Assembly: GCA_029855935.1 (NCBI GenBank)
Contig: JAGSHN010000020.1
Span: 64,001-128,000 of the forward strand
DNA length: 64,000 bases
Origin: Candidatus Thorarchaeota archaeon
Lineage (GTDB): Archaea > Asgardarchaeota > Thorarchaeia > Thorarchaeales > Thorarchaeaceae
Direction: 5' to 3'
In this document: piece by piece, positions 2,686 to 13,023 of the stretch
Position numbering within the stretch: the stretch's first letter is position 1
Layout: every line of letters begins with the position of its first letter
Position numbers and translations under genes: made by a program
Notes under the pieces: model-generated
Told to the model about the DNA's origin: nothing
The model's input: the letters and a program-made list of their open reading frames with translations, nothing else
Database searches by the model: none

Positions 2686-3438
2686 TCACTTGATGATCTT
2701 GTAGAGCTCTTCCATCTTCGCAGTGAACTCGCTGTCCGGATGACGGAGAACGACAACATATCTGCTTCCAGCCTCGATGAGCAGTGGGAGAAGCGGGATG
2801 ATGGTGGCCACCTTTGCCTTGAACTTTCCCTCCACCTGTCGCACGATATCCGCGTCCTCGTATATGCGGGGCTTCTTGTTGATCACTATCTTGATCTCCG
2901 GCACCTGAAGTTTGCGTGCCACACTCAGTGTCGCGGCAGTGCCAAGAAGGTCCTGTTCATCGACACGCGCCACCACAAAGAGAAAGTCGGCCGTCGCCAT
3001 CGAGAGGAGGGTCTCACGGTCGAGTCCGGGGTGGGTGTCAATTATCAGGTAGTCAAGTTGTTTCTCGCGTATCACGTCATTGAATCCATTCCGCAGGTCG
3101 CTCACCTCGTATCCCTCCCTGAGAATCCGGGTTATGTCCGCCGCATTCATCGACGATGGGACAAGGTATAGCCTTCCTCTCCTGATCCCCAACTCCTCGG
3201 TCAGATCCAGACATACATCAGTGATATCACAAGCCCCGCGTAGGTAGTCATTGAGTGTGTGGGGAAGACGTTCGCGTCCCTTGCCAAAGATGATGTGAAT
3301 ACCGGGGGATGCCATATCAGTGTCCATCACAGCCACACGCTTGCCATCAAGTGCCGCCACTGCAGCAAGATTGGCAGCGATATTCGACTTGCCAGTCCCA
3401 CCGCGAAACGAGTGAATGCTAACGATCTCTCCCGCCAT
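2686..3438 (-). CDS. MinD/ParA-family ATPase
   Basis: Deviant Walker A HSFRGGTGKSN, DTD switch I, IIDTHPG Walker B, INK. Its start overlaps the upstream stop (TGATG at 3438). Confidence 0.92.
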   Translation of the reverse strand: MAGEIVSIHSFRGGTGKSNIAANLAAVAALDGKRVAVMDTDMASPGIHIIFGKGRERLPHTLNDYLRGACDITDVCLDLTEELGIRRGRLYLVPSSMNAADITRILREGYEVSDLRNGFNDVIREKQLDYLIIDTHPGLDRETLLSMATADFLFVVARVDEQDLLGTAATLSVARKLQVPEIKIVINKKPRIYEDADIVRQVEGKFKAKVATIIPLLPLLIEAGSRYVVVLRHPDSEFTAKMEELYKIIK

Positions 3439-4757
3439 CAGTCCGACCTCGCATCTTCCAGTATTGGTTCGGTGGCCCAGGTCACATTGTTTCCCAGGGC
3501 CCTCAGGACCTCCAGAATACGTGACGGAGGAATGTGCGTCCGAGCAGAGATAACTCGGACCGGCGTCTTGCCGTCACAGTATTCCCATATTGCGTCTAGT
3601 ATTTCGTAATCCCTCTTAGGCATTCCGATGACCTCCAGATATGCAAGGAACCTCTCGTCCCTGTCGCAGACCTTTGCATACAGCGGTCGGATGCGTACCA
3701 CCCCTCGTGCCACGAGCAGCGCGAGGAGCTCTGACAACTCTGACATCCGTAGCCCAGCGTCACGTGCGAGCTCGCCCACGGTGATCAGCCCGCGGTGTCG
3801 ACCGAGCAGGCCCACTAGTTTCCTGTGCACACTATCGGGAAACCGCTCTGCGAGAAGAGTTTCCACTGCCCCGGCTGTGATCTCTCCGCCAACGGGCACA
3901 ACAACATCCTCCTCGTTGAGGGCAACTGGCCCCTCCTCATCTACAGGGGCCACACGCGGCACATCACTCAGGTCCAGCTGGCACACAAGATTGAGAAACG
4001 CTCTCGCCTTGTTCTCAACAGACTCAGGCGAAACGGATCCCGTGACCACGAACACCACAATCTTCTCATCACACCTGCTTGCAACAAAGGAGGTTCCCAT
4101 ATCGAGCGACGGATGAACAATAGTTATTGGAAGGCGCTCGGCAGCGGTCTGCCCCGCGATGGAGACGAGCATATCGAGCAATGCCTCAAGTTCGTACATT
4201 CTCAAGTTCGACACTATTATGTGACCGTCATCGGTGAGCGCTGCGCCACGCAGTACCTCCTCTCTCTCGACCGATGAGAGAACACTCTTCAGGTCGTGGA
4301 GGACCGAGGGAGGCAGCAGGATTGTGTGATACCTGCGCGCTATTCCCGGAATCCCGTCAAATCTCCTCAGCACGAGCTCGACAGTGTCAGCAAACGACTG
4401 GAACCTTGAGTACTGTGCCCTCGAACTGTCATCATCAGTGTTTCTCAGAACCTCGTAGTACTTGCCGACGAACCGTTCGGCCAGCTCCTTGAGAATGGCG
4501 CGGTAGATCTCGACACTATCGTCTTTTCTCACAAGGGCAATGAAGTACAGGTCTCCCTTCTCTACCCAGACGAACTTGCTGTCAGCAAACGCTATCGCCT
4601 GAATCTCCTGTTCAGTAGTGCTCTCCACAAAGGACCCCACAGCCGAGAGGAATGCGGCAATCACCTCGTCAATCTTGTGAGGCCCTCCTGTGGAGTAGCG
4701 GAACAAGGGGATGCCCGTATTTCTGATAATGACAATCTCCTGCGCCAATCTTCGCAC
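3438..4757 (-). CDS. Longin + roadblock-like + tandem winged-helix protein
   Basis: N-terminal IVIIRNTGIPLFRY...IAAFLSAVGSF...LKELAERFVGKY (Asgard longin pattern); middle LRGAALTDDGHIIVSNL (roadblock/MglB-like); two C-terminal wHTH units (TVGELARDAGL...LVARGVV; CDGKTPVRVISART). Confidence 0.7.
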   Translation of the reverse strand: MRRLAQEIVIIRNTGIPLFRYSTGGPHKIDEVIAAFLSAVGSFVESTTEQEIQAIAFADSKFVWVEKGDLYFIALVRKDDSVEIYRAILKELAERFVGKYYEVLRNTDDDSSRAQYSRFQSFADTVELVLRRFDGIPGIARRYHTILLPPSVLHDLKSVLSSVEREEVLRGAALTDDGHIIVSNLRMYELEALLDMLVSIAGQTAAERLPITIVHPSLDMGTSFVASRCDEKIVVFVVTGSVSPESVENKARAFLNLVCQLDLSDVPRVAPVDEEGPVALNEEDVVVPVGGEITAGAVETLLAERFPDSVHRKLVGLLGRHRGLITVGELARDAGLRMSELSELLALLVARGVVRIRPLYAKVCDRDERFLAYLEVIGMPKRDYEILDAIWEYCDGKTPVRVISARTHIPPSRILEVLRALGNNVTWATEPILEDARSD

Positions 4758-5030
4758 CTCTGACTCGGCCGAAAACGGCCCAATGACACTCGTCGAGCCG
4801 ATGCGGCTACCTACCTCTTACGATACCACACCTCTAGACTTGAAGCTTTCGTGCGTCCGGCATCAACCGGGTAGACTGTCGGCCTGACAGAGAGACCTTG
4901 ATTCATAACAGCAAACCTATTAACGGTTGGCTGTGGGTATTTGTTGGGGCAGGTAGTAGAGAGGCGTACCACTTCTTGATTGGACGGCCACCCCGGTGTT
5001 CTCCCCGTGTGCGCGCGTAGGTGATAGACG

Positions 5031-6065
5031 ATGACGGAAGAGACACAGACGCAGACAAACATCGTGGCAGTTGTCGTCACAGACGCTGAGGGGAAGGTCA
5101 TCGCCACTGATGAGGTCCTTCGGACAAGGCTTGGTAGTGGGGCTACGGTCTTCAACCTGCTGAGAACATCGGATCACCAAGTGCTGCAAGATGCTCTGGC
5201 ACAGGCCATAGCGAATCAGCGGAAGACCAGTGCCCAGCTGTCCATCCCGGGGCCGGGGGACAAGTGGACGGCAGGTCAGGCCGATATAGTTCCTATTGCC
5301 GTCGAGGGAAAGGCCTTGGTGCTCGTAGTCTTCTCAACGCCGCGTCCGTGCACCGGCTCGCCTGCGTATCAGCACAAGCTCAGCCTTCTTGATGCGATGA
5401 CATACGAGATCAGGTCACTTCTTCAGGAGCTCGTCACCACTCAAGAATACGTGAGGTCGCTCGCGGCCGACAACAGCGAACTCTCAGAGATTGTTGACGG
5501 CCTCCTGACAGAGGTCGGCCGCGCAGTCAGGTTGGCCAATTCCGTGAGGACCATCCTGAAACTCGAGTCCGAGCCCGTAGAGGTTCGAGTGATGGACCTT
5601 GCAACCACTGTGGAACGGTCGTTCGAGATGACAAGCGAGTTGTATCCAGATCGAAATCTTGGGCTCGTCGCAACATTCGACGAGGGTCAGTTCAAGGTGA
5701 TGTGCTCGGACCTCTTGGTGGATGCCCTCTCGGCACTGCTCAGCGTATCAGTTGAGATGTGCCATCCAGAGGAGTCCCGAATTGTTGTGGACGCCAAAAT
5801 GCAGGACGGCGACCGGGTTCTGCTCACGATCAGTGACAACGGCGAGCGAATCCCGGAGGAGAATCATGAGAAGATATTCGACATAATATGTGCGGGCCTC
5901 AGCAGATCCATTGGTCAGGGCCTCAATATGGCTGAGGAGGTACTGACTCGATGCGATGCTTCAGTCAGGCTTGTTGAAGAGCCTGCTGACGAGGGGCTTC
6001 TTCTCAGGTTCGCAATAACACTCTCCCGCGCAGGGAGCGGAACTTCATCGGTGGTGAGCAGGTAG
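5031..6065 (+). CDS. PAS + histidine-kinase-like protein lacking catalytic residues (pseudokinase)
   Basis: PAS-like N-terminus; H-box reads MTYEIRSLL (His->Tyr); N-box has no Asn; G1 SDNGERIP and G2 IGQGL remnants. Confidence 0.75.
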   Translation: MTEETQTQTNIVAVVVTDAEGKVIATDEVLRTRLGSGATVFNLLRTSDHQVLQDALAQAIANQRKTSAQLSIPGPGDKWTAGQADIVPIAVEGKALVLVVFSTPRPCTGSPAYQHKLSLLDAMTYEIRSLLQELVTTQEYVRSLAADNSELSEIVDGLLTEVGRAVRLANSVRTILKLESEPVEVRVMDLATTVERSFEMTSELYPDRNLGLVATFDEGQFKVMCSDLLVDALSALLSVSVEMCHPEESRIVVDAKMQDGDRVLLTISDNGERIPEENHEKIFDIICAGLSRSIGQGLNMAEEVLTRCDASVRLVEEPADEGLLLRFAITLSRAGSGTSSVVSR

Positions 6066-6427
6066 TGGCAAAGATAATGATAGCCGATGACGACGTCTTC
6101 TTACACAGGGTTATGGCGAGGGTCCTTGGTCTCGGTGGCCATCAGGTCGTGGCACACGCGTACAACGGCCTAGAGGCCTTCAAGAAATATGCGAACCTCA
6201 ACGACAAGCCAGACGTTATCTTGATGGATCACCGAATGCCGGTTATGGATGGCGTCCACGCTACAAAGGAGATTCTCCGGGTTGACCCCCACGCGAAGAT
6301 TCTATTCATCAGCGCAGACGAGTCTGCAAAGGAGGAGGCGCTGAAGGCAGGGGCGGCCGGCTTTCTAGTCAAGCCAGTGAGAAGCACCATGCTCTTCAAG
6401 GAGATTGACGAGGTCCTGTCCAAGTAG
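6065..6427 (+). CDS. Stand-alone response regulator receiver (CheY-like)
   Basis: IADDD, LMDHRMPVMDG (phospho-Asp), FISA, GAAGFLVKP. Start overlaps the upstream TAG. Confidence 0.95.
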   Translation: MAKIMIADDDVFLHRVMARVLGLGGHQVVAHAYNGLEAFKKYANLNDKPDVILMDHRMPVMDGVHATKEILRVDPHAKILFISADESAKEEALKAGAAGFLVKPVRSTMLFKEIDEVLSK

Positions 6428-6441
6428 GCAGGTGCGTACGT

Positions 6442-8226
6442 CTAGTATCCCGGACGCAGAACAGGCAACGTAATGCGGAAATGAGCGCCCTCACCGGGTG
6501 CCGTGTCAATCAACTCTAGGTCACCACCGAGGGAACGCAGTATCTCTCGGCTGAGGTAGAGTCCGAAGCCGCCTGACGACCTCGTTGAAACACCACGTGC
6601 GAACAGCCTGTCACGAATCGACGGGTCCACACCGGGGCCGTTGTCCTCAACGTCGATATAGACCACATCGTTGCTCTCAAGCCGAGCAGTAACAGTCACC
6701 TCGGGTCGGCTTGTACCGTGCATTACACTGTTTCGTATAAGGTTCTGGAGGACCATAGGCAAAAGCGAACTCCCCGCCACCATCACGTCCTTCACCTCAG
6801 ACACGTTGACCCGAAGGACAAGCCCCGGATAGGTTGAACGAGCCCAGCGTACGACATCGCACACAAGATCGAGGAGGTTCTTGATCCCCTTCTCAGACGG
6901 CTTTCCGAAGGCCTTTATCACCTCCAAGGAGCGCTCGAGCACGGTGTCGCAGGTATTGATGAGCTCCTCAATGGCGGCGATATCACCACGAGCAATGAGC
7001 TGTCGGCCCAGGTCCAGGTTTGACAGAAGTAGTGCTATGTCATTTGTCAAATCGTGGCGTAGGACGGAGGCATAGAGCTTCAGCTCCCGATGAGCCTGCT
7101 CGCGTTCCAGCTGTGCCATCTTCTTCTCAGTGACATCACGGCAGACGAAGACTATACTCACCTCGGTGTCACTGACGGCGACACCAGTGCTGACCTCCGC
7201 GAGGAATCTCGAACCATCTTTCCGCATCAGCTCAATCTCCCTTGGCTGCTTGCCTCCCGCCTGGTTTCCACGAATGAGTGGCGCCAACAGACGCCGAATC
7301 TCACCCCGACTCTCGGTGGGCACCACCAGTTCAACTATCGACTTTCCGCTGGCATCGTCGACAGAGTATCCAAATAGTCTCTCTGCGGCAGAGCTCCAGA
7401 ACTGGATTCTGAGACTCGCGTCAACTATCGCGATCGCATCGCTAGACGCTATGGCTATGGCCATGAGCCGCATACGTTCGCGACGCAGTTCCGCGGTCAC
7501 TCTCTCTCTATCGGTGACGTCAATCACTGCGGCAGAGGCGAAAGACAATGTCTCGTCCGTTGCACGCGGTACCGCGTGAATCTCCAAATGCCGGATGGTT
7601 CCCTGCCGTGTGCGTACCCGAAGCGTGTAGGTAGATGAGCGTCCTTTCTTGCGGAGGGCGGTCTGCTCGTGAAGAAGTGTCCGATCCTCGGGAAGCACAA
7701 ACTCCGTGAGGGGTCTGCCAATCAGCTCCTCAAGATCGCGTTCGACCATCTTGCAGAATGTGGAGTTCGCGTATAGGATGTGCTCTTCAAAGTCTGCTAT
7801 GAGAAATCCAATCGGAAGGTGCTCCATCTCCTTCAAGAAGTCAACATATACCGGGCGACCATCCGGACCCACTATTGTGCCCGTCTTTGGAACTCCTACA
7901 GCAGCAACAAGGCCGCTCTCTCTGTCAATCGCCCATACACTCCACGCCAGCCCAAGCCGCGACTTACCCAAATGTAGAGTGGTCTGCACGTGACCAACAT
8001 CTGACTCTCCATCAGCAATCGGGCGGATAGCCTCACCAAGAGAGCCACTCTCCCAGATTCCATCAATGTCCTCTAGTGTCTTGAGAGAACGCCCCCGTCG
8101 AGCGCGTCGGATGAGCTTCGCGAGCGGCTCGCTCACAAAGCCTAGGTCCCCCCCACGAGAGACCACCAGCATCATCGGGGCTCCCGTTGGCAGGTCCTTT
8201 GCACAATCAGCAGACCTTGATTTCAT
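6442..8226 (-). CDS. Multi-PAS sensor histidine kinase
   Basis: Two clear PAS/PAC domains, H-box LRHDLTND, N-box QNLIRNSVMH, DNGPG, GFGLYLS; no TM segment. Confidence 0.93.
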   Translation of the reverse strand: MKSRSADCAKDLPTGAPMMLVVSRGGDLGFVSEPLAKLIRRARRGRSLKTLEDIDGIWESGSLGEAIRPIADGESDVGHVQTTLHLGKSRLGLAWSVWAIDRESGLVAAVGVPKTGTIVGPDGRPVYVDFLKEMEHLPIGFLIADFEEHILYANSTFCKMVERDLEELIGRPLTEFVLPEDRTLLHEQTALRKKGRSSTYTLRVRTRQGTIRHLEIHAVPRATDETLSFASAAVIDVTDRERVTAELRRERMRLMAIAIASSDAIAIVDASLRIQFWSSAAERLFGYSVDDASGKSIVELVVPTESRGEIRRLLAPLIRGNQAGGKQPREIELMRKDGSRFLAEVSTGVAVSDTEVSIVFVCRDVTEKKMAQLEREQAHRELKLYASVLRHDLTNDIALLLSNLDLGRQLIARGDIAAIEELINTCDTVLERSLEVIKAFGKPSEKGIKNLLDLVCDVVRWARSTYPGLVLRVNVSEVKDVMVAGSSLLPMVLQNLIRNSVMHGTSRPEVTVTARLESNDVVYIDVEDNGPGVDPSIRDRLFARGVSTRSSGGFGLYLSREILRSLGGDLELIDTAPGEGAHFRITLPVLRPGY

Positions 8227-8409
8227 AGTCTTGCCCCCAGCGCGAACGTCGTCCTTGTAGACGACAATCCAGGGTACCTCCTACCCGTATCCAGTGTAGT
8301 GCCCACAGCAGGCCTTCGCCGAATCCAGTCGGTGGATACTGAAGGCGACCCACTTGGGAGAGGTTGTCGGCCAACTAATAACAATTCCTCTGCCGCGCGA
8401 GCAGCAGAC

Positions 8410-9336
8410 TCACACAGGACGGGTAGGACGGCTCATCCCCCCTATCTCCATCTTCTTCCACTCAACCTCGTCTCCGAGCTTCAATAAGACAGAGTACAGC
8501 TCCTCGGGCTGGACGCCCAGTTTGTTGCTCACCGCCTCCAGGGACCGGGAGCCATTGCATAGCATCCGTGCACGTTTGAGAAGCCTATACTCTCGTTCCC
8601 TAAGCCCAATCAGGTCGAGAAAGGCATCGAATCTCTCGTCGCCCTGTCGGATTGATGGACACAACCTGTAGACATCCACAACACCCCATATTGCGAGGAA
8701 CTCGACCACCTTCATGATAGTGTCGACATCCATCCCGACATGCGAGGCGATGTCCTTCAGAGTTCGTTCTCCATCAATGGCGTCGATTACGCGTCCGCCG
8801 CCGGGAAATGTCCTGTGGAACTCGTCGATCAGCTCGGCCGATTCCTGAAAGAGTGTGAGTGCCTCCCTGTTGACAACAGGCACAACAAAGGGCCCCAAGT
8901 TCGATGTGACAAGAAGCAGCCCCTCGTAGTAGTTGACGGCCCGGTGGATCTCGGTCTCAAAGTCTGAGAAGGCCTCCTCAATCATCACCGGAGAATCGAG
9001 AACATCCTCGTACCGCATCAGGAACTTCCTTCCCAAGTCGCGGAGGATGGCACGCAAGATGTGAACAGGAGCACCAGAGTCGACTAACAGAACGAAAAGA
9101 ACATTCTTCCCAGCCTGTTCGTAGAGTATCTCCGATCCCTTGAAGGAGAGGCTCTGAACCGACCGCTCACCAAACTCCGATGCGAAACTCGTTATGGCGC
9201 TGAGAAAGCCCGAGAGTAGCTCATTCAGCCGGCGGGCACCTGTGAATGAGTAGTGGAATACTGGCACACCACCGCCGGCAATGACCATGAACTCTTGGAC
9301 CTTCAGTCGACCTGACAAGGCTACTGTCTCCATCAT
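8410..9336 (-). CDS. Longin + tandem winged-helix protein (NPRL2-like architecture), paralogue of 3438..4757
   Basis: VIAGGGVPVFHY...LLSGFLSAITSFASEFG longin; VPV...IDGERTLKDIA...FLAIWGVV wHTH; C-terminal DERF...IG...C.G...LG..V.W shared with the paralogue. Confidence 0.75.
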   Translation of the reverse strand: MMETVALSGRLKVQEFMVIAGGGVPVFHYSFTGARRLNELLSGFLSAITSFASEFGERSVQSLSFKGSEILYEQAGKNVLFVLLVDSGAPVHILRAILRDLGRKFLMRYEDVLDSPVMIEEAFSDFETEIHRAVNYYEGLLLVTSNLGPFVVPVVNREALTLFQESAELIDEFHRTFPGGGRVIDAIDGERTLKDIASHVGMDVDTIMKVVEFLAIWGVVDVYRLCPSIRQGDERFDAFLDLIGLREREYRLLKRARMLCNGSRSLEAVSNKLGVQPEELYSVLLKLGDEVEWKKMEIGGMSRPTRPV

Positions 9337-9496
9337 TGCTCGGAGAAATCATCCAATAAAAGATATCTGCACGGACTTTGAACGGCGACAGGTCAGATAT
9401 CCGGCTCTGCTGTGTGGGAGAGGCAGTTCAGCCGAGAAACTGTCATATTGGTCAAGCGTCAAGGTTGCATCGCTTCCAAGACAGACGGTGAAAGAA

Positions 9497-11125
9497 GTGC
9501 TTGAGTATAGAGAGTTCCCGACAAGAAAGGCAATCAGTCACATCGCATTTGCACCGCTGTACGCACTTCTCATCAGGGTCATCTCGCTGGTCACTCAGGG
9601 CCGGCTCTTTCCCGGCCTCTCCTTGCAGCAACATCTGGTATTCTTGGCTCTGGGGATTGCGGCCGCTGCACTGACACTGGCAGTGACACCGCTATTGATC
9701 CCCAGGCTCCGATCTCTCTACGTGATGATGGCCGCTGTGGGCCTGTTCGTATCCGTGAGTCATGCCGTCCTTCATCTGATCACATTGCCGCCCGACCTCA
9801 CTTGGTACTACCGTGCGTATGTTGTCGTCTCGGCCTTCGGCGGACTCGTTCTCGTGATGAACGCCCAGACCGTGGGACTCAATGAGACAGTTGTGATCAG
9901 ATATCGCGGCAGAATTGTCGGCCTGCTCTTCGCTCTGACACTCACGCTACTCTTCGTCTACTCTGCTCTCGACCAGCTCGGACCCGACGGACTGCTCGAC
10001 GGCATCAGCATTCGAGAGGCCGTGGCAATGGTCGGGATCATCGTGAGCGCTGTGGGGGCACCTTGGCGCTGGAAACGACACCCGCTAACGGTTGCCGAGG
10101 ACGTGCAGAGCTACGTCCTTCCGACTCTCTTCATTCTCGTCTCGTATTTCTTGTGGTATCAGGCGACAATGCTCAACATAAGGGACATCTTCGAGCTCGC
10201 GGGGGAGACCTTCATCTCGCTCGGTGAGTTCTCGGGCCTTGCGATGTACGAGCCTCTGTTTCTCGCCCTTGGTGTTGTAGTCGCAGGGCTTCTCGCCGAC
10301 CTAAAGGGAAGAAAGAGAGCCTTTGACCTGCTCGTCTTGATGATGGGGATGATGGCAATCTTCAGCACGACCCTCTATGGTATCGAGAGCGTCGAGATCA
10401 CACCCGGGACGTATGAGATTCGCGTCATCCTCAACGCGCCAGCGCTGCTCGTCATTGAGAGATTCATAGAGGGCTACATGCTGTGCCTGTTCGTCATGCT
10501 CATCTGGTCCGAGGTAGGATCACCAAAGACGAGATCGAAGAGAATCGCGATGGTCTGGTCCTTCCTTCTGGCGTATATGACAGCCTTCTGGGTGCTAGGC
10601 ATAGGAGCGTTCGGCATCCAACCACCCTTTGCGATAGCGCTGTACGGACGCGAGTTCGCCATCCTCACGGCGCTCGTGGGTCTGTATCTGAGTGCCAATG
10701 TACCAGAGGTGCTGGGAAGGGAGGTGGAACTGGAGTCCCTCTCCCTCGACTTTGACGAAGAACTGGTGGAGGACACTGTCGAGGCACTGGTGGGCTCTGA
10801 CGAGTTCGAGTCAATTCTCAGCCAGCTTGAGGTGATGAACGGAACAATCGAGACCCCTGACGGACCTGTCAACGTTATGGGTGAGGAGTTCGACAAGTAC
10901 CTCCCGCTCCGCGCGATTCCCGGCATAGGCGTCAGGATGGAAGAACGCCTCAAGAGAGCCGGGTATGCCAGTGCCGTGCAACTAGCAGGTGAAACTCCGG
11001 CTCGGCTTGCAGCCAAGATTGACGGCCTGACCAGACAGAGAGCGTCGAAGATTCTGGCGGCCACTCGGAAGGCAGTCAAGGAGACGCTTCAGCGCCTTGA
11101 GAGGGGGGACGGGTCGCAAGTCTAG
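9497..11125 (+). CDS. MFS-like polytopic membrane protein with C-terminal helix-hairpin-helix domain
   Basis: About 12 TM; GLLADLKGRKR resembles MFS motif A; acidic linker; LRAIPGIGVRMEERLKRAGY HhH. The probable start is GTG 9497 after GGTGA; the ORF track start at 9281 overlaps the divergent gene. Confidence 0.7.
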   Translation: MLEYREFPTRKAISHIAFAPLYALLIRVISLVTQGRLFPGLSLQQHLVFLALGIAAAALTLAVTPLLIPRLRSLYVMMAAVGLFVSVSHAVLHLITLPPDLTWYYRAYVVVSAFGGLVLVMNAQTVGLNETVVIRYRGRIVGLLFALTLTLLFVYSALDQLGPDGLLDGISIREAVAMVGIIVSAVGAPWRWKRHPLTVAEDVQSYVLPTLFILVSYFLWYQATMLNIRDIFELAGETFISLGEFSGLAMYEPLFLALGVVVAGLLADLKGRKRAFDLLVLMMGMMAIFSTTLYGIESVEITPGTYEIRVILNAPALLVIERFIEGYMLCLFVMLIWSEVGSPKTRSKRIAMVWSFLLAYMTAFWVLGIGAFGIQPPFAIALYGREFAILTALVGLYLSANVPEVLGREVELESLSLDFDEELVEDTVEALVGSDEFESILSQLEVMNGTIETPDGPVNVMGEEFDKYLPLRAIPGIGVRMEERLKRAGYASAVQLAGETPARLAAKIDGLTRQRASKILAATRKAVKETLQRLERGDGSQV

Positions 11126-11997
11126 TCATTCGGGCCGCCGCTGAACAGTGTTCTACGCTCCGAGATCTCGCCAGTCTTGCGATGGGGAGTCCTTGCAACA
11201 GTACCATGTGCCTTCTCCATCTCTCTGGCGGCGTCGGCCAACAGTGCGGCCGTGCGAAGCATCTCGTGAGCCCCAGCCACCATCAAGAGATACCTGTGAC
11301 GTTCCGCGACCTTGAAGCATGCCTGACTGGTGATAGGCGCAATCGCCTCGCAGATCTTGATTGCTGCATACGCCTTGGCCGCTGCGTATGGGTTCGTGAA
11401 GCCACCTGCCTTGACAACACGCTCGGCAGACACTTTCTCTGCGGGGAGGGAGATGTCCTGTCTTGCCCGCACCACGGAGATAGCCTCGTCAATCACACGC
11501 TGGAGGAACCTGACCAGTCCACAGGCGGAGAAGACCTTCAGCACGTCGGCGTTGAACAGTGTCATCTCGGTCGCGTCTAGGAACTCGGGCTTTGCTCCTA
11601 TCATCGGGTCCATAGGTAGCACGACGTACCCCTGCTTGTCAAGAACAGTACTGACTCTCTTGCCATCGGCATTCTTTCTCACGAAAGCCCTCAACCCGGG
11701 GCCGTCCGTTATGTTCAGGGCAGGAACGCCACTATCGTGCAGACGCGTCCGCACCAGGGTTGGTCCAGGAAGGGCAGCATTGGGACTCACCACCACGCAC
11801 AGGTCAGGTCCCCAGCCTATGGCAGTCTCGACGACGCCCTCGCAGTGCTCGGGCTCCATATGCGCCCCGGTGGAGAGGGACCTCACCTCTATGTCAGTGC
11901 GCGTTGCCCGTTCGTCCACTATGAGGTCTATGAGAGGAAGTGAGCCGATACAGCCCAGCTTCAGGAATGCAACTCTAGTCGGGAGTCCTGTCGTCAA
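11122..11997 (-). CDS. mtd: F420-dependent methylene-tetrahydromethanopterin dehydrogenase
   Basis: KLGCIG...DERATR, GAHMEP, SPNAALPGP, DPMIGAKPEFLDATEMTLFNAD, FTNPYAAAKA, CF, AHEMLR.AA.LA..ARE.EK. Confidence 0.92.
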   Translation of the reverse strand: MTTGLPTRVAFLKLGCIGSLPLIDLIVDERATRTDIEVRSLSTGAHMEPEHCEGVVETAIGWGPDLCVVVSPNAALPGPTLVRTRLHDSGVPALNITDGPGLRAFVRKNADGKRVSTVLDKQGYVVLPMDPMIGAKPEFLDATEMTLFNADVLKVFSACGLVRFLQRVIDEAISVVRARQDISLPAEKVSAERVVKAGGFTNPYAAAKAYAAIKICEAIAPITSQACFKVAERHRYLLMVAGAHEMLRTAALLADAAREMEKAHGTVARTPHRKTGEISERRTLFSGGPND

Positions 11998-12081
11998 TGC
12001 TCAGACCTGTAGTCTCGTCAGGAGGGATTATTGAAAACGCTTGTGGTCGACAGGCCACCGCACTGTGAGACCAAGCCAATC

Positions 12082-13023
12082 CTACTGCGTCTTCTCGGGC
12101 TTGCGCCACGAGGGGTTGAGGTGGTACGCAAGACCCGTCCCTGAGAGGAGGTCAAGAGCCGACAGCTCGCGAGCACAGGAGGCACAACGGAGGGTCACCC
12201 TGGGCTCGGGGGTCGCGGTGGAGCAGTCGTTGCAGAGCACCTCAATATCCAGTACTCTGATGCTGTCCACCGGGATAGGCCTTCTGCAGCCGGGGCAGGA
12301 TATCTCCTCGGTCTCGTCAACAATGACGCTCTTGAATGTCTTCCCACAGTGGGGGCAGTGAACGCCATAGACAACATATAGATTGAAGGAGCCGCACGAG
12401 GGACATCTCAGGTCGAGAATCATCTCGGTACTAGAGCACCTTGTGCACACAAACCTACGTCCCCGGCTCCGCGCAACGAGAATTCCTGCCGCAACAAGGT
12501 CCTGAAGCGTACGGTTGACCTCCTCGTCATCGCCAGGGAGGTAGCCCGCTGCGTCGGGATACTTATCAACTCCCTTGAACACGTGGTTCGGGCTCAACAG
12601 TGGGACTAGTCCGTCTTCCATTGCCTCAATGAGCCGCCGCACGCCCTTGCGTGCCAAGAGTTCGGCACGATCTGTCTGCCTCATCAGTTCTTGCAGCCGC
12701 TCGAAGGCCCTGGCAATCTCAGTGTCCCACTGTGTACTCTCAAGGTCCATCTCGTGGACGAGACGTAGCAGGTTTCTCTCAACGCGAGCCGGGTCGTCGT
12801 TGTCATCGAGAAGAACAGCGAGACAGTTGGGCTTGATCAGAACAGAGACCACAAGACCCCTGCACAGATTCGTATACCCAATCCGTGACTCCTGATGAAT
12901 GCCGTGGCCCATGAAGATTCTGAGGGCCTCCTCGCTCGTGATAGATGCACCCTCTGGCCATGACCGCCCAATCAAAGGGCCAAGGTTATCGTCCCACCAG
13001 ATGGAGTGCATCTCCCGAGGCAT
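12082..13023 (-). CDS. Longin/uDENN-like N-terminus fused to wHTH and a multi-Zn-ribbon (TackOD1-like) domain
   Basis: WDDNLGPLIGRSWP opening motif; YP...LQDLVAAGIL wHTH; six CxxC pairs (CTRC, CPSC, CPHC, CPGC, CNDC, CASC). Confidence 0.6.
   Translation of the reverse strand: MPREMHSIWWDDNLGPLIGRSWPEGASITSEEALRIFMGHGIHQESRIGYTNLCRGLVVSVLIKPNCLAVLLDDNDDPARVERNLLRLVHEMDLESTQWDTEIARAFERLQELMRQTDRAELLARKGVRRLIEAMEDGLVPLLSPNHVFKGVDKYPDAAGYLPGDDEEVNRTLQDLVAAGILVARSRGRRFVCTRCSSTEMILDLRCPSCGSFNLYVVYGVHCPHCGKTFKSVIVDETEEISCPGCRRPIPVDSIRVLDIEVLCNDCSTATPEPRVTLRCASCARELSALDLLSGTGLAYHLNPSWRKPEKTQ

Follow-up and report, generated by a model that had tools for sequence, protein, structure and literature searches.

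Gene content of the locus

We analysed a window of 64,000 nucleotides (nt) that corresponds to positions 64001-128000 of contig 6 of a Thorarchaeial genome. The assembly has 2.97 Mb and probably comes from a hydrothermal-vent metagenome, the one dataset listed as containing this stretch; no RNA dataset is listed for it. This work concerns seven genes of the window and the intergenic region between two of them. Two of the genes encode LonA and LonB, proteins with a longin domain at the N-terminus and two winged helix-turn-helix (wHTH) units at the C-terminus. The rest encode a MinD/ParA-type P-loop ATPase, a polytopic membrane protein with a helix-hairpin-helix (HhH) tail, a histidine kinase, a histidine-kinase-like protein and a receiver (Table 1). 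The open reading frames (ORFs) named in the initial annotation all lie at the coordinates given there.

The stop codon of LonA overlaps the start codon of the ATPase in the sequence TGATG. This translational coupling had been annotated initially and is read directly in the sequence. LonB lies upstream of the PAS histidine kinase, on the same strand and separated by 183 nt. The HATPase_c protein and the receiver are on the opposite strand, between the LonA and LonB genes, so the two paralogues flank them as described before. The ORF of the membrane protein is open from 9281. Its orthologues begin at the N-terminus LEYREFP, which is GTG-coded at 9497, and this GTG is probably the start.

Table 1. 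Genes and upstream element of the locus, in window coordinates (aa, amino acids).
Feature	Coordinates	Strand	Basis or remark
MinD/ParA-type P-loop ATPase, 250 aa	2686..3438	-	Pfam AAA_31/ParA/CbiA; PDB sequence match
LonA, 439 aa: longin ~5-108, roadblock ~146-266, two winged helices ~293-430	3438..4757	-	AlphaFold2, Foldseek, VIA
Histidine-kinase-like protein, HATPase_c, Tyr for the phospho-accepting His	5031..6065	+	Pfam HATPase_c only
Stand-alone CheY-like receiver	6065..6427	+	Pfam Response_reg, E 3e-23
PAS x2 histidine kinase, downstream of LonB	6442..8226	-	Pfam PAS x2, HATPase_c; H-box His present
LonB, 308 aa: longin 12-113, helical linker, two winged helices ~151-300	8410..9336	-	AlphaFold2, Foldseek, VIA, profile
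Degenerate copy of the TATGGAYNTTTCG upstream element	9435..9448	-	Conserved intact in other Thorarchaeia; candidate promoter or operator
MFS-like polytopic membrane protein, acidic linker, C-terminal HhH	9497..11125	+	Pfam HHH_5; divergent from LonB

Conservation of the gene neighbourhood

For 50 Thorarchaeial genomes, which represent 17 genera, we extracted the ~17 kb that surround LonB. The usual order begins with TackOD1, methylene-tetrahydromethanopterin (methylene-H4MPT) dehydrogenase and the HhH membrane protein. LonB-LonA-ATPase follow on the opposite strand, and then comes an aldehyde:ferredoxin oxidoreductase. LonB, LonA and the ATPase are contiguous in ~40 of the 50 loci. The LonA stop overlaps the ATPase start, or lies at most ~17 nt from it, at ~38 of 42 loci, and the spacer between LonB and LonA measures 41-107 nt in 40 of 43. 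The membrane-protein gene is adjacent and divergent in nearly all Thorarchaeial loci. It is conserved with the module, and the initial annotation had not counted it as part of the system. A second Thorarchaeial family has LonA-ATPase only.

The Hodarchaeota show a comparable arrangement. LonA adjoins the ATPase, and in 9 of 10 loci the pair diverges from a gene homologous to that of the HhH membrane protein. No LonB was seen in this class. The initial annotation considered a LonA/LonB heterodimer. As a general requirement this does not hold: the Hodarchaeota have LonA only, and one Thorarchaeial genus has mostly LonB only next to the ATPase.

The distribution of both genes was followed among 301 Asgard genomes. 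The ATPase, recognized by its RGG-type Walker A, is present in 63 of the 76 genomes of one Thorarchaeial family, in the only genome of the second (1/1) and in 18 of the 19 of a Hodarchaeota family. LonA is found in 64/76, 1/1 and 18/19 of the same genomes, respectively. Neither of them appears at comparable strength in the 25 other Asgard families. The linkage between a longin protein and a MinD-type ATPase is much stronger than one window could reveal, with synteny in two classes and near-identical distributions. Because gene order and co-occurrence are kept across two Asgard classes, a functional module is strongly supported. We regard such a module, made up of LonA, the ATPase and the membrane protein, with LonB added in Thorarchaeia, as likely.

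Folds and relatives of LonA and LonB

LonA and LonB were annotated as paralogues, and BLASTP agrees. The proteins align over ~130 N-terminal residues (E 2e-19) and over ~107 C-terminal residues (E 1e-13), including the stretch beginning with DERF that had been quoted as common to both. We built AlphaFold2 models on 43 LonB and 37 LonA orthologues. The LonB model (predicted local distance difference test, pLDDT, 82; predicted template modelling score, pTM, 0.72) presents a longin fold and then two winged helices. The LonA model (pLDDT 79) has the same ends. It adds a roadblock domain at residues 146-266, which was absent from the initial description. Structural alignments with VIA bear out the longin start proposed for both proteins. 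More precisely, the longin domain of LonB aligns with VAMP7 over 118 residues (Z 15.3, root-mean-square deviation (rmsd) 2.3 Å), and that of LonA aligns with solved longin domains at Z 13.0. The LonA roadblock matches an Asgard Roadblock3 (Z 11.8), MglB (Z 11.7) and also LAMTOR subunits, all in the range 11.2-11.8.

The initial annotation compared both proteins with eukaryotic NPRL2/NPRL3. The comparison stands for the architecture. In a Foldseek search of the PDB, LonB finds chains of NPRL2, NPRL3, Npr2 or Npr3 at all ranks from 1 to 13 (E 3e-8 to 2e-5). The template modelling (TM) scores of these matches are only 0.24-0.32, because the domain orientations differ. VIA aligns LonB with NPRL3 over 274 residues (Z 11.1, rmsd 12.9). 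Likewise, the NPR2 families are the sole eukaryotic clusters in a shape search of the ESM Atlas. For LonA, the first Foldseek matches are Mon1-Ccz1, Fuzzy-Inturned and BLOC-3, and NPRL3 comes next. Its longin and roadblock domains align together with LD1-LD2 of Mon1, Fuzzy and Inturned over 231-259 residues (Z ~12.5).

At the sequence level, the comparison with NPRL2/NPRL3 does not stand in the same way. Pfam NPR2 (PF06218) and NPR3 (PF03666) have no match at E <= 0.1 in the window proteins, and they are not among the 25 commonest Pfam families of the LonA/LonB orthologues. HTH_NPRL3 (PF24064) appears below its cut-off in 3 of the 43 LonB and 18 of the 37 LonA orthologues. Fuz_longin_1, the family of Mon1, Fuzzy and HPS1, is found instead. 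It matches 30 of 43 LonB and 33 of 37 LonA orthologues at E <= 0.1, with a best E of 1e-5; the window LonA reaches 20.2 bits for a cut-off of 26.1. Single-sequence searches of the PDB with LonA and LonB gave chance-level matches only. A profile of LonB orthologues places residues 165-220, the first wHTH, onto residues 183-238 of human NPRL2. The initial annotation had pointed to this segment (IDG...KIS...LLYYGVV), and it is real. The match is sub-threshold (E 0.083), yet it ranks second among 177,635 PDB sequences.

The loop before beta2 carries a G-x-P motif. It is invariant in LonB orthologues, and its proline is variable in LonA. The extended form, G-x-P-[ILV]-F, is identical to that of Mon1. 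By sequence, the longin domains are closer to the Mon1/Fuzzy/HPS1 family than to Pfam NPR2/NPR3. The models support an architecture like that of NPRL2/NPRL3, with LonB as the short and LonA as the long paralogue; the sequence matches do not place the two proteins in that family.

All of the closest solved structures regulate small GTPases. LonA and LonB could then be a GTPase-activating protein (GAP) or a guanine nucleotide exchange factor (GEF) for an unlinked Rag-, Arf- or Rab-like GTPase, and the ATPase would only place or assemble the complex. The conserved Mon1-like G-x-P in the beta1-beta2 loop fits this explanation, as does the abundance of small GTPases in Asgard genomes (PMC12290439; 10.1101/2020.10.19.343400). 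However, GAP-type longins carry a GP motif and a catalytic Arg finger (PMC12290439). LonA and LonB have G-x-P in place of GP, and the alignment of LonB orthologues contains no invariant loop Arg in the longin domain. Moreover, no small GTPase was seen among the genes matched in the Thorarchaeial block or the ORFs of one Hodarchaeota locus; the MinD-type ATPase is the sole NTPase kept with LonA. The same block and locus contain no DEPDC5- or Rag-like gene, although no genome-wide search was made for these. We consider that a GAP or GEF function for an unlinked GTPase is quite unlikely.

Further matches to LonB were observed. The host genome has at least eight more weak matches to the LonB longin, on contigs C15, C16, C24, C27, C28 and C29. 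Some of them sit in very long ORFs (up to 1771 aa), and one on C24 is ~2.4 kb from another histidine kinase. In the ESM Atlas, an Asgard cluster of 308-aa proteins with Arf/Ras/Roc Pfam matches has a TM score of 0.42 to LonB over 202 residues. This cluster may represent a small GTPase joined to LonB-like winged helices.

The MinD/ParA-type ATPase

The ATPase matches Pfam AAA_31, ParA and CbiA above their cut-offs. It remains below those of the MinD families, with 77.8 bits for TIGR01969 (archaeal MinD; cut-off 201.75) and 46.9 bits for TIGR01968 (cut-off 212.9). The nearest PDB sequence is A. fulgidus MinD-1 (E 2e-13), and structures of FleN are also among the matches. The Walker A is RGGTGKS in the 47 orthologues extracted (47/47) and invariant in the 27 aligned. 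It means that the signature Lys of KGGxGK[ST] is replaced by Arg (R12). In MinD/ParA proteins, this Lys reaches across the ATP-bound dimer. R12, K17, D39, D41, D134 and C70 are invariant in the 27 aligned orthologues. The sequence places this ATPase in the MinD/ParA (SIMIBI) superfamily, as an Asgard-specific subfamily. It is probably active, because it retains the P-loop Lys, both switch-I Asp and the Walker-B Asp. It is also the most conserved gene of the set: identities within the family are 74-89%.

The alignment to A. fulgidus MinD-1 stops 5 residues before the C-terminus of the ATPase, and the MinD-1 chain runs 35 further. In bacterial MinD, the C-terminal extension carries the membrane-targeting helix. 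The Asgard ATPase appears to have no such extension and so no room for a terminal membrane helix.

This last feature, together with the ParA/MinD superfamily itself, would also suit a positioning system of ParA type. In that case, the ATPase would pattern on the nucleoid, LonA/LonB would be the adaptor, and the HhH-tailed membrane protein, or its complex, would be the cargo. HhH domains, of which the tail is one, are often non-specific DNA binders. The partner genes are directly upstream, in the style of par operons. Nevertheless, the module is a single chromosomal copy with fixed synteny and does not lie on a mobile element. No centromere-like repeat array was noticed, and the adaptor domains are acidic. 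We see the positioning of a cargo as very unlikely.

Two observations on the ATPase can be added. First, a Cys-x5-Cys motif lies between switch I and the next strand, with C70 in 27 of 27 orthologues and C76 in 26 of 27. A metal or cluster site at the dimer interface is conceivable. Second, two Helarchaeota loci (L102, 4089-6756; L097, 2411-5260) present a TPR protein of ~520 aa, then a familyless protein of 110-137 aa, and then an RGG-type ATPase. The TPR protein and the small protein may be an alternative partner set for the ATPase.

Membrane protein and intergenic element

The membrane protein has many transmembrane helices. An acidic linker leads to the C-terminal HhH, which Pfam HHH_5 matches at residues 543-596. 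In a protein-language-model search, clusters of MFS_1 (major facilitator superfamily) make up 65 of the 100 nearest matches, and the translation contains a loop similar to MFS motif A (LADLKGRKRAF). Pfam has no MFS match at E <= 0.001 in this protein.

The region between the membrane-protein gene and LonB holds a conserved 13-mer, TATGGAYNTTTCG. The exact sequence occurs once per locus in 32 of the fetched loci (31 distinct genomes, two of the loci being the same place). Its position is always between these two genes, ~40-50 nt upstream of the membrane-protein gene. In one locus (L052), an insertion of 2.4 kb splits the intergenic region, and the element remains beside the membrane-protein gene. 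The fetched Hodarchaeota loci contain no exact match. The element resembles a promoter of BRE/TATA type (CGAAA... on the strand of the membrane-protein gene), and it may be the promoter or operator of this gene.

This region bears on the main rival explanation. LonA and LonB could be local transcription factors. Their TrmB/MarR-like winged helices would bind to the divergent promoter, so as to regulate both their own operon and the MFS-like gene. The longin and roadblock domains would sense a ligand or partner, and the ATPase would modulate the regulators, like FleN antagonising FleQ. The divergent layout of regulator and transporter is classical. In the 32 loci, the two divergent units have the 13-nt element between them. 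By sequence, the wHTH units come closest to TrmB, MarR, IclR and HTH_24, and the PDB matches of the ATPase include FleN structures.

However, the wHTH units are net acidic in most orthologues, with mean charges of -4.0 and -4.0 in LonB and of -1.8 and -1.3 in LonA. The consensus recognition helices are acidic and hydrophobic, without conserved basic residues. Given this net charge, protein binding fits better than DNA binding. The whole-chain structural matches are to NPRL2/3, whose wHTH units bind protein. Finally, TATGGAYNTTTCG tracks the membrane-protein gene and is promoter-like, so an operator role is not required. A function of LonA and LonB as transcription factors is thus unlikely in our estimation, and it stays ahead of the other alternatives.

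Two-component genes

The initial annotation joined the two longin proteins to a phosphorelay. Conservation across Asgard genomes, which it proposed to check, extends to the LonA-ATPase neighbourhood and not to the two-component genes. The PAS kinase, the kinase-like protein and the receiver are inside the operon in the window's genus only, where one congener has an identical layout. In another congener, LonB and the kinase are located away from the rearranged LonA and ATPase. At ~40 of the 50 Thorarchaeial loci, and at all Hodarchaeota loci examined, the operon has no two-component gene. The two-component genes are a local insertion, outside the core, and the phosphorelay is not a part of the conserved system.

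The kinase-like protein had been considered a pseudokinase. In the window genome, Tyr replaces the phospho-accepting His: the sequence ...TYEIR... aligns with ...THDL... of the congeneric orthologue and with ...RHDL... of the neighbouring kinase. This part of the claim is right for the window genome, to which the substitution is specific. It does not extend to the congener, whose orthologue keeps the His, and the loss is therefore recent. Pfam detected no PAS domain in the N-terminal part of the protein.

Two further genera have a PAS kinase by the operon. In one genus it precedes LonB, in the other it follows the ATPase, and both kinases are only 24-28% identical to that of the window. The host genome has 14 HATPase_c genes in total, two of them within this operon. 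With so few, three independent kinase placements exceed chance expectation, according to a rough estimate made after the fact. A phosphorelay input is plausible as a recurrent add-on.

In a broader proposal, a LonA/LonB heterodimer regulates the ATPase and is itself under the control of the phosphorelay, as an integral and general feature. The presence of the kinase, the kinase-like protein and the receiver within the operon of the window and one congener is in line with it, and so is the recurrence of PAS kinases in the two other genera. Published NPRL2-like longins are fused to two-component domains (10.1101/2020.10.19.343400), which also favours the proposal. On the other hand, most loci lack such genes in the operon, the kinases are dissimilar and change position with the genus, and the His-less state is confined to the window genome. 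We hold an integral phosphorelay as highly improbable.

Proposed mechanism

In the explanation that we find best, the longin proteins of this conserved module would regulate their dedicated ATPase. We give it slightly less than an even chance as a whole, and we are somewhat more tentative about the regulation being direct. LonA, together with LonB where present, is proposed as the partner of the ATPase because of the translational coupling and the co-distribution, because dimers of longin/roadblock type are regulators of NTPases in other systems, and because the net acidic wHTH units argue against DNA binding. Over whole chains, the structures that match best are those of heterodimers that regulate NTPases, namely NPRL2/3, Mon1-Ccz1 and Fuzzy-Inturned.

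Pairing of the proteins would go through the longin/roadblock domains and give LonA-LonB in Thorarchaeia and LonA-LonA in Hodarchaeota. The dimer could control, or read out, the ATP-dependent dimer cycle of the ATPase. It would be comparable to MinE and ParB acting on MinD and ParA, and to longin/roadblock dimers acting on small GTPases. The acidic wHTH pairs may offer surfaces for protein binding, as the wHTH units of NPRL2/NPRL3 do. The membrane protein, with its cytoplasmic HhH tail, could provide the input or be the place where the system acts. In the window's genus, the inserted kinase, kinase-like protein and receiver probably add a phosphorelay input.

Several observations weigh against this explanation. 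To our knowledge, longin/roadblock regulators act on TRAFAC small GTPases and not on SIMIBI ATPases of MinD/ParA type, and the pairing is without precedent. Every physical interaction among the products, like the direction of the regulation, is one that we infer. By sequence, the wHTH units are best matched by the DNA-binding TrmB family (41 of 43 LonB and 37 of 37 LonA members), ahead of HTH_NPRL3.

The gene neighbourhood also has exceptions. Five loci of one Thorarchaeial genus have LonB-ATPase without LonA. In a complete genome of this genus, which is mostly devoid of LonA, an unrelated membrane protein, and not LonA, comes after the ATPase. In Helarchaeota, the neighbours of the ATPase are a TPR protein and a 110-aa protein instead of LonA. 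Even when every HMMER filter was switched off, no LonA-like protein appeared beside it, and a longin partner is therefore not a strict requirement of the ATPase. Finally, in one congener of the window (L101, 73000-82000), an opposite-strand protein of 883 aa with DUF4350/PKD domains splits LonA from the ATPase. This congener is also without the receiver and kinase-like genes, and the locus is fluid within the genus.

Two further analyses concern the proposed partners. A complex prediction of LonB, LonA and the ATPase (997 residues, own alignments, without controls) had a score of 0.00, which is evidence neither way. A Rosetta-stone search with the longin/wHTH profile gave ten long relatives of 554-917 aa, none of which showed a ParA/MinD or kinase domain.

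Relation to known systems

Part of this system was described before. A preprint by Liu et al. reports a family of NPRL2 domain organisation in most Thorarchaeota (10.1101/2020.10.19.343400). These authors suggest that regulators of eukaryotic type are connected to the two-component signalling of prokaryotes (10.1101/2020.10.19.343400). Our literature search found no paper on a conserved operon in which the MinD-type ATPase is an Arg variant and an MFS-like/HhH membrane protein is linked, nor on its presence in Hodarchaeota. Then, the protein family and its tie to two-component systems were known. The linkage with the ATPase and the membrane protein is new, as far as this search shows.

NPRL2/NPRL3 of GATOR1, which correspond to Npr2/Npr3 of the yeast SEACIT, share the longin N-terminus and the winged-helix C-terminus. 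They too come as two paralogues of different length, the longer of which has an additional domain that separates the longin from the C-terminus. LonA and LonB differ from them by G-x-P for GP, without an Arg finger identified, and by a linked NTPase of MinD/ParA type. Mon1-Ccz1, Fuzzy-Inturned and HPS1-HPS4 resemble our proteins in the G-x-P-[ILV]-F motif of Mon1 and in the LD1-LD2 alignment with Mon1, Fuzzy and Inturned, and most LonA and LonB orthologues match Fuz_longin_1 at E <= 0.1. The tri-longin RabGEFs have three consecutive longin/roadblock domains. We considered this layout for LonA and LonB and rejected it: LonA has two such domains and LonB one, followed in each by two wHTH units that replace the third. 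In addition, the loci scanned have no linked Rab-like gene.

Among MinD/ParA ATPases with their partners (MinE, ParB, FleN-FleQ, TadZ/CpaE), we find the same fold family, the catalytic Asp, the P-loop Lys and a partner gene directly upstream. The Asgard ATPase differs by its invariant Arg in place of the signature Lys, by scores far below the MinD cut-offs and, apparently, by the missing C-terminal membrane helix. Moreover, a longin/roadblock partner is not known for this class of ATPases. TadZ/CpaE couples a receiver-like domain to a MinD/ParA-type ATPase, and it is a precedent for phosphorelay input to such an enzyme.

The Streptomyces conservon cvnA-D, reportedly described by Komatsu et al. 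in 2006, is said to contain a kinase-like sensor, a roadblock protein, a DUF742 HTH-like protein and a P-loop NTPase. Both MglB, of the MglA-MglB pair, and a Streptomyces roadblock protein structurally match the middle domain of LonA. In those systems, the NTPase is a Ras-like GTPase and the proteins are separate. In contrast, here the longin, roadblock and wHTH domains are fused and the NTPase is of MinD type.

Among the eukaryotic signature proteins of Asgard archaea, those with longin and roadblock domains are some of the best known, with very few known targets there. The module offers a concrete candidate partner set, a dedicated ATPase and a membrane protein, for one NPRL2/3-like family. 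If the longin proteins regulate the ATPase, longin/roadblock regulators would reach a second class of NTPases, which bears on the origin of GATOR1-type signalling. If they were transcription factors instead, they would be a warning against inferring eukaryote-like function from eukaryote-like folds. Either case is relevant to Asgard cell biology and eukaryogenesis, on the basis of comparative genomics and predicted folds. A more speculative proposal is that the nutrient-sensing axis of eukaryotes has a forerunner or cousin, built in prokaryotic style, in the module of Thorarchaeia and Hodarchaeota. This module would lead from a transporter-like transceptor to an NPRL2/3-like longin dimer and then to a SIMIBI-class switch, the MinD-type ATPase. 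We regard this as a very doubtful possibility.

Neighbouring genes

The genes for methylene-H4MPT dehydrogenase and TackOD1 (window 11122-13023) keep their place by the module in most Thorarchaeial genera. They were not seen in the single Hodarchaeota locus scanned with Pfam. A DUF362 protein and an ADP-ribosylglycohydrolase are further, unrelated insertions at Thorarchaeial loci.

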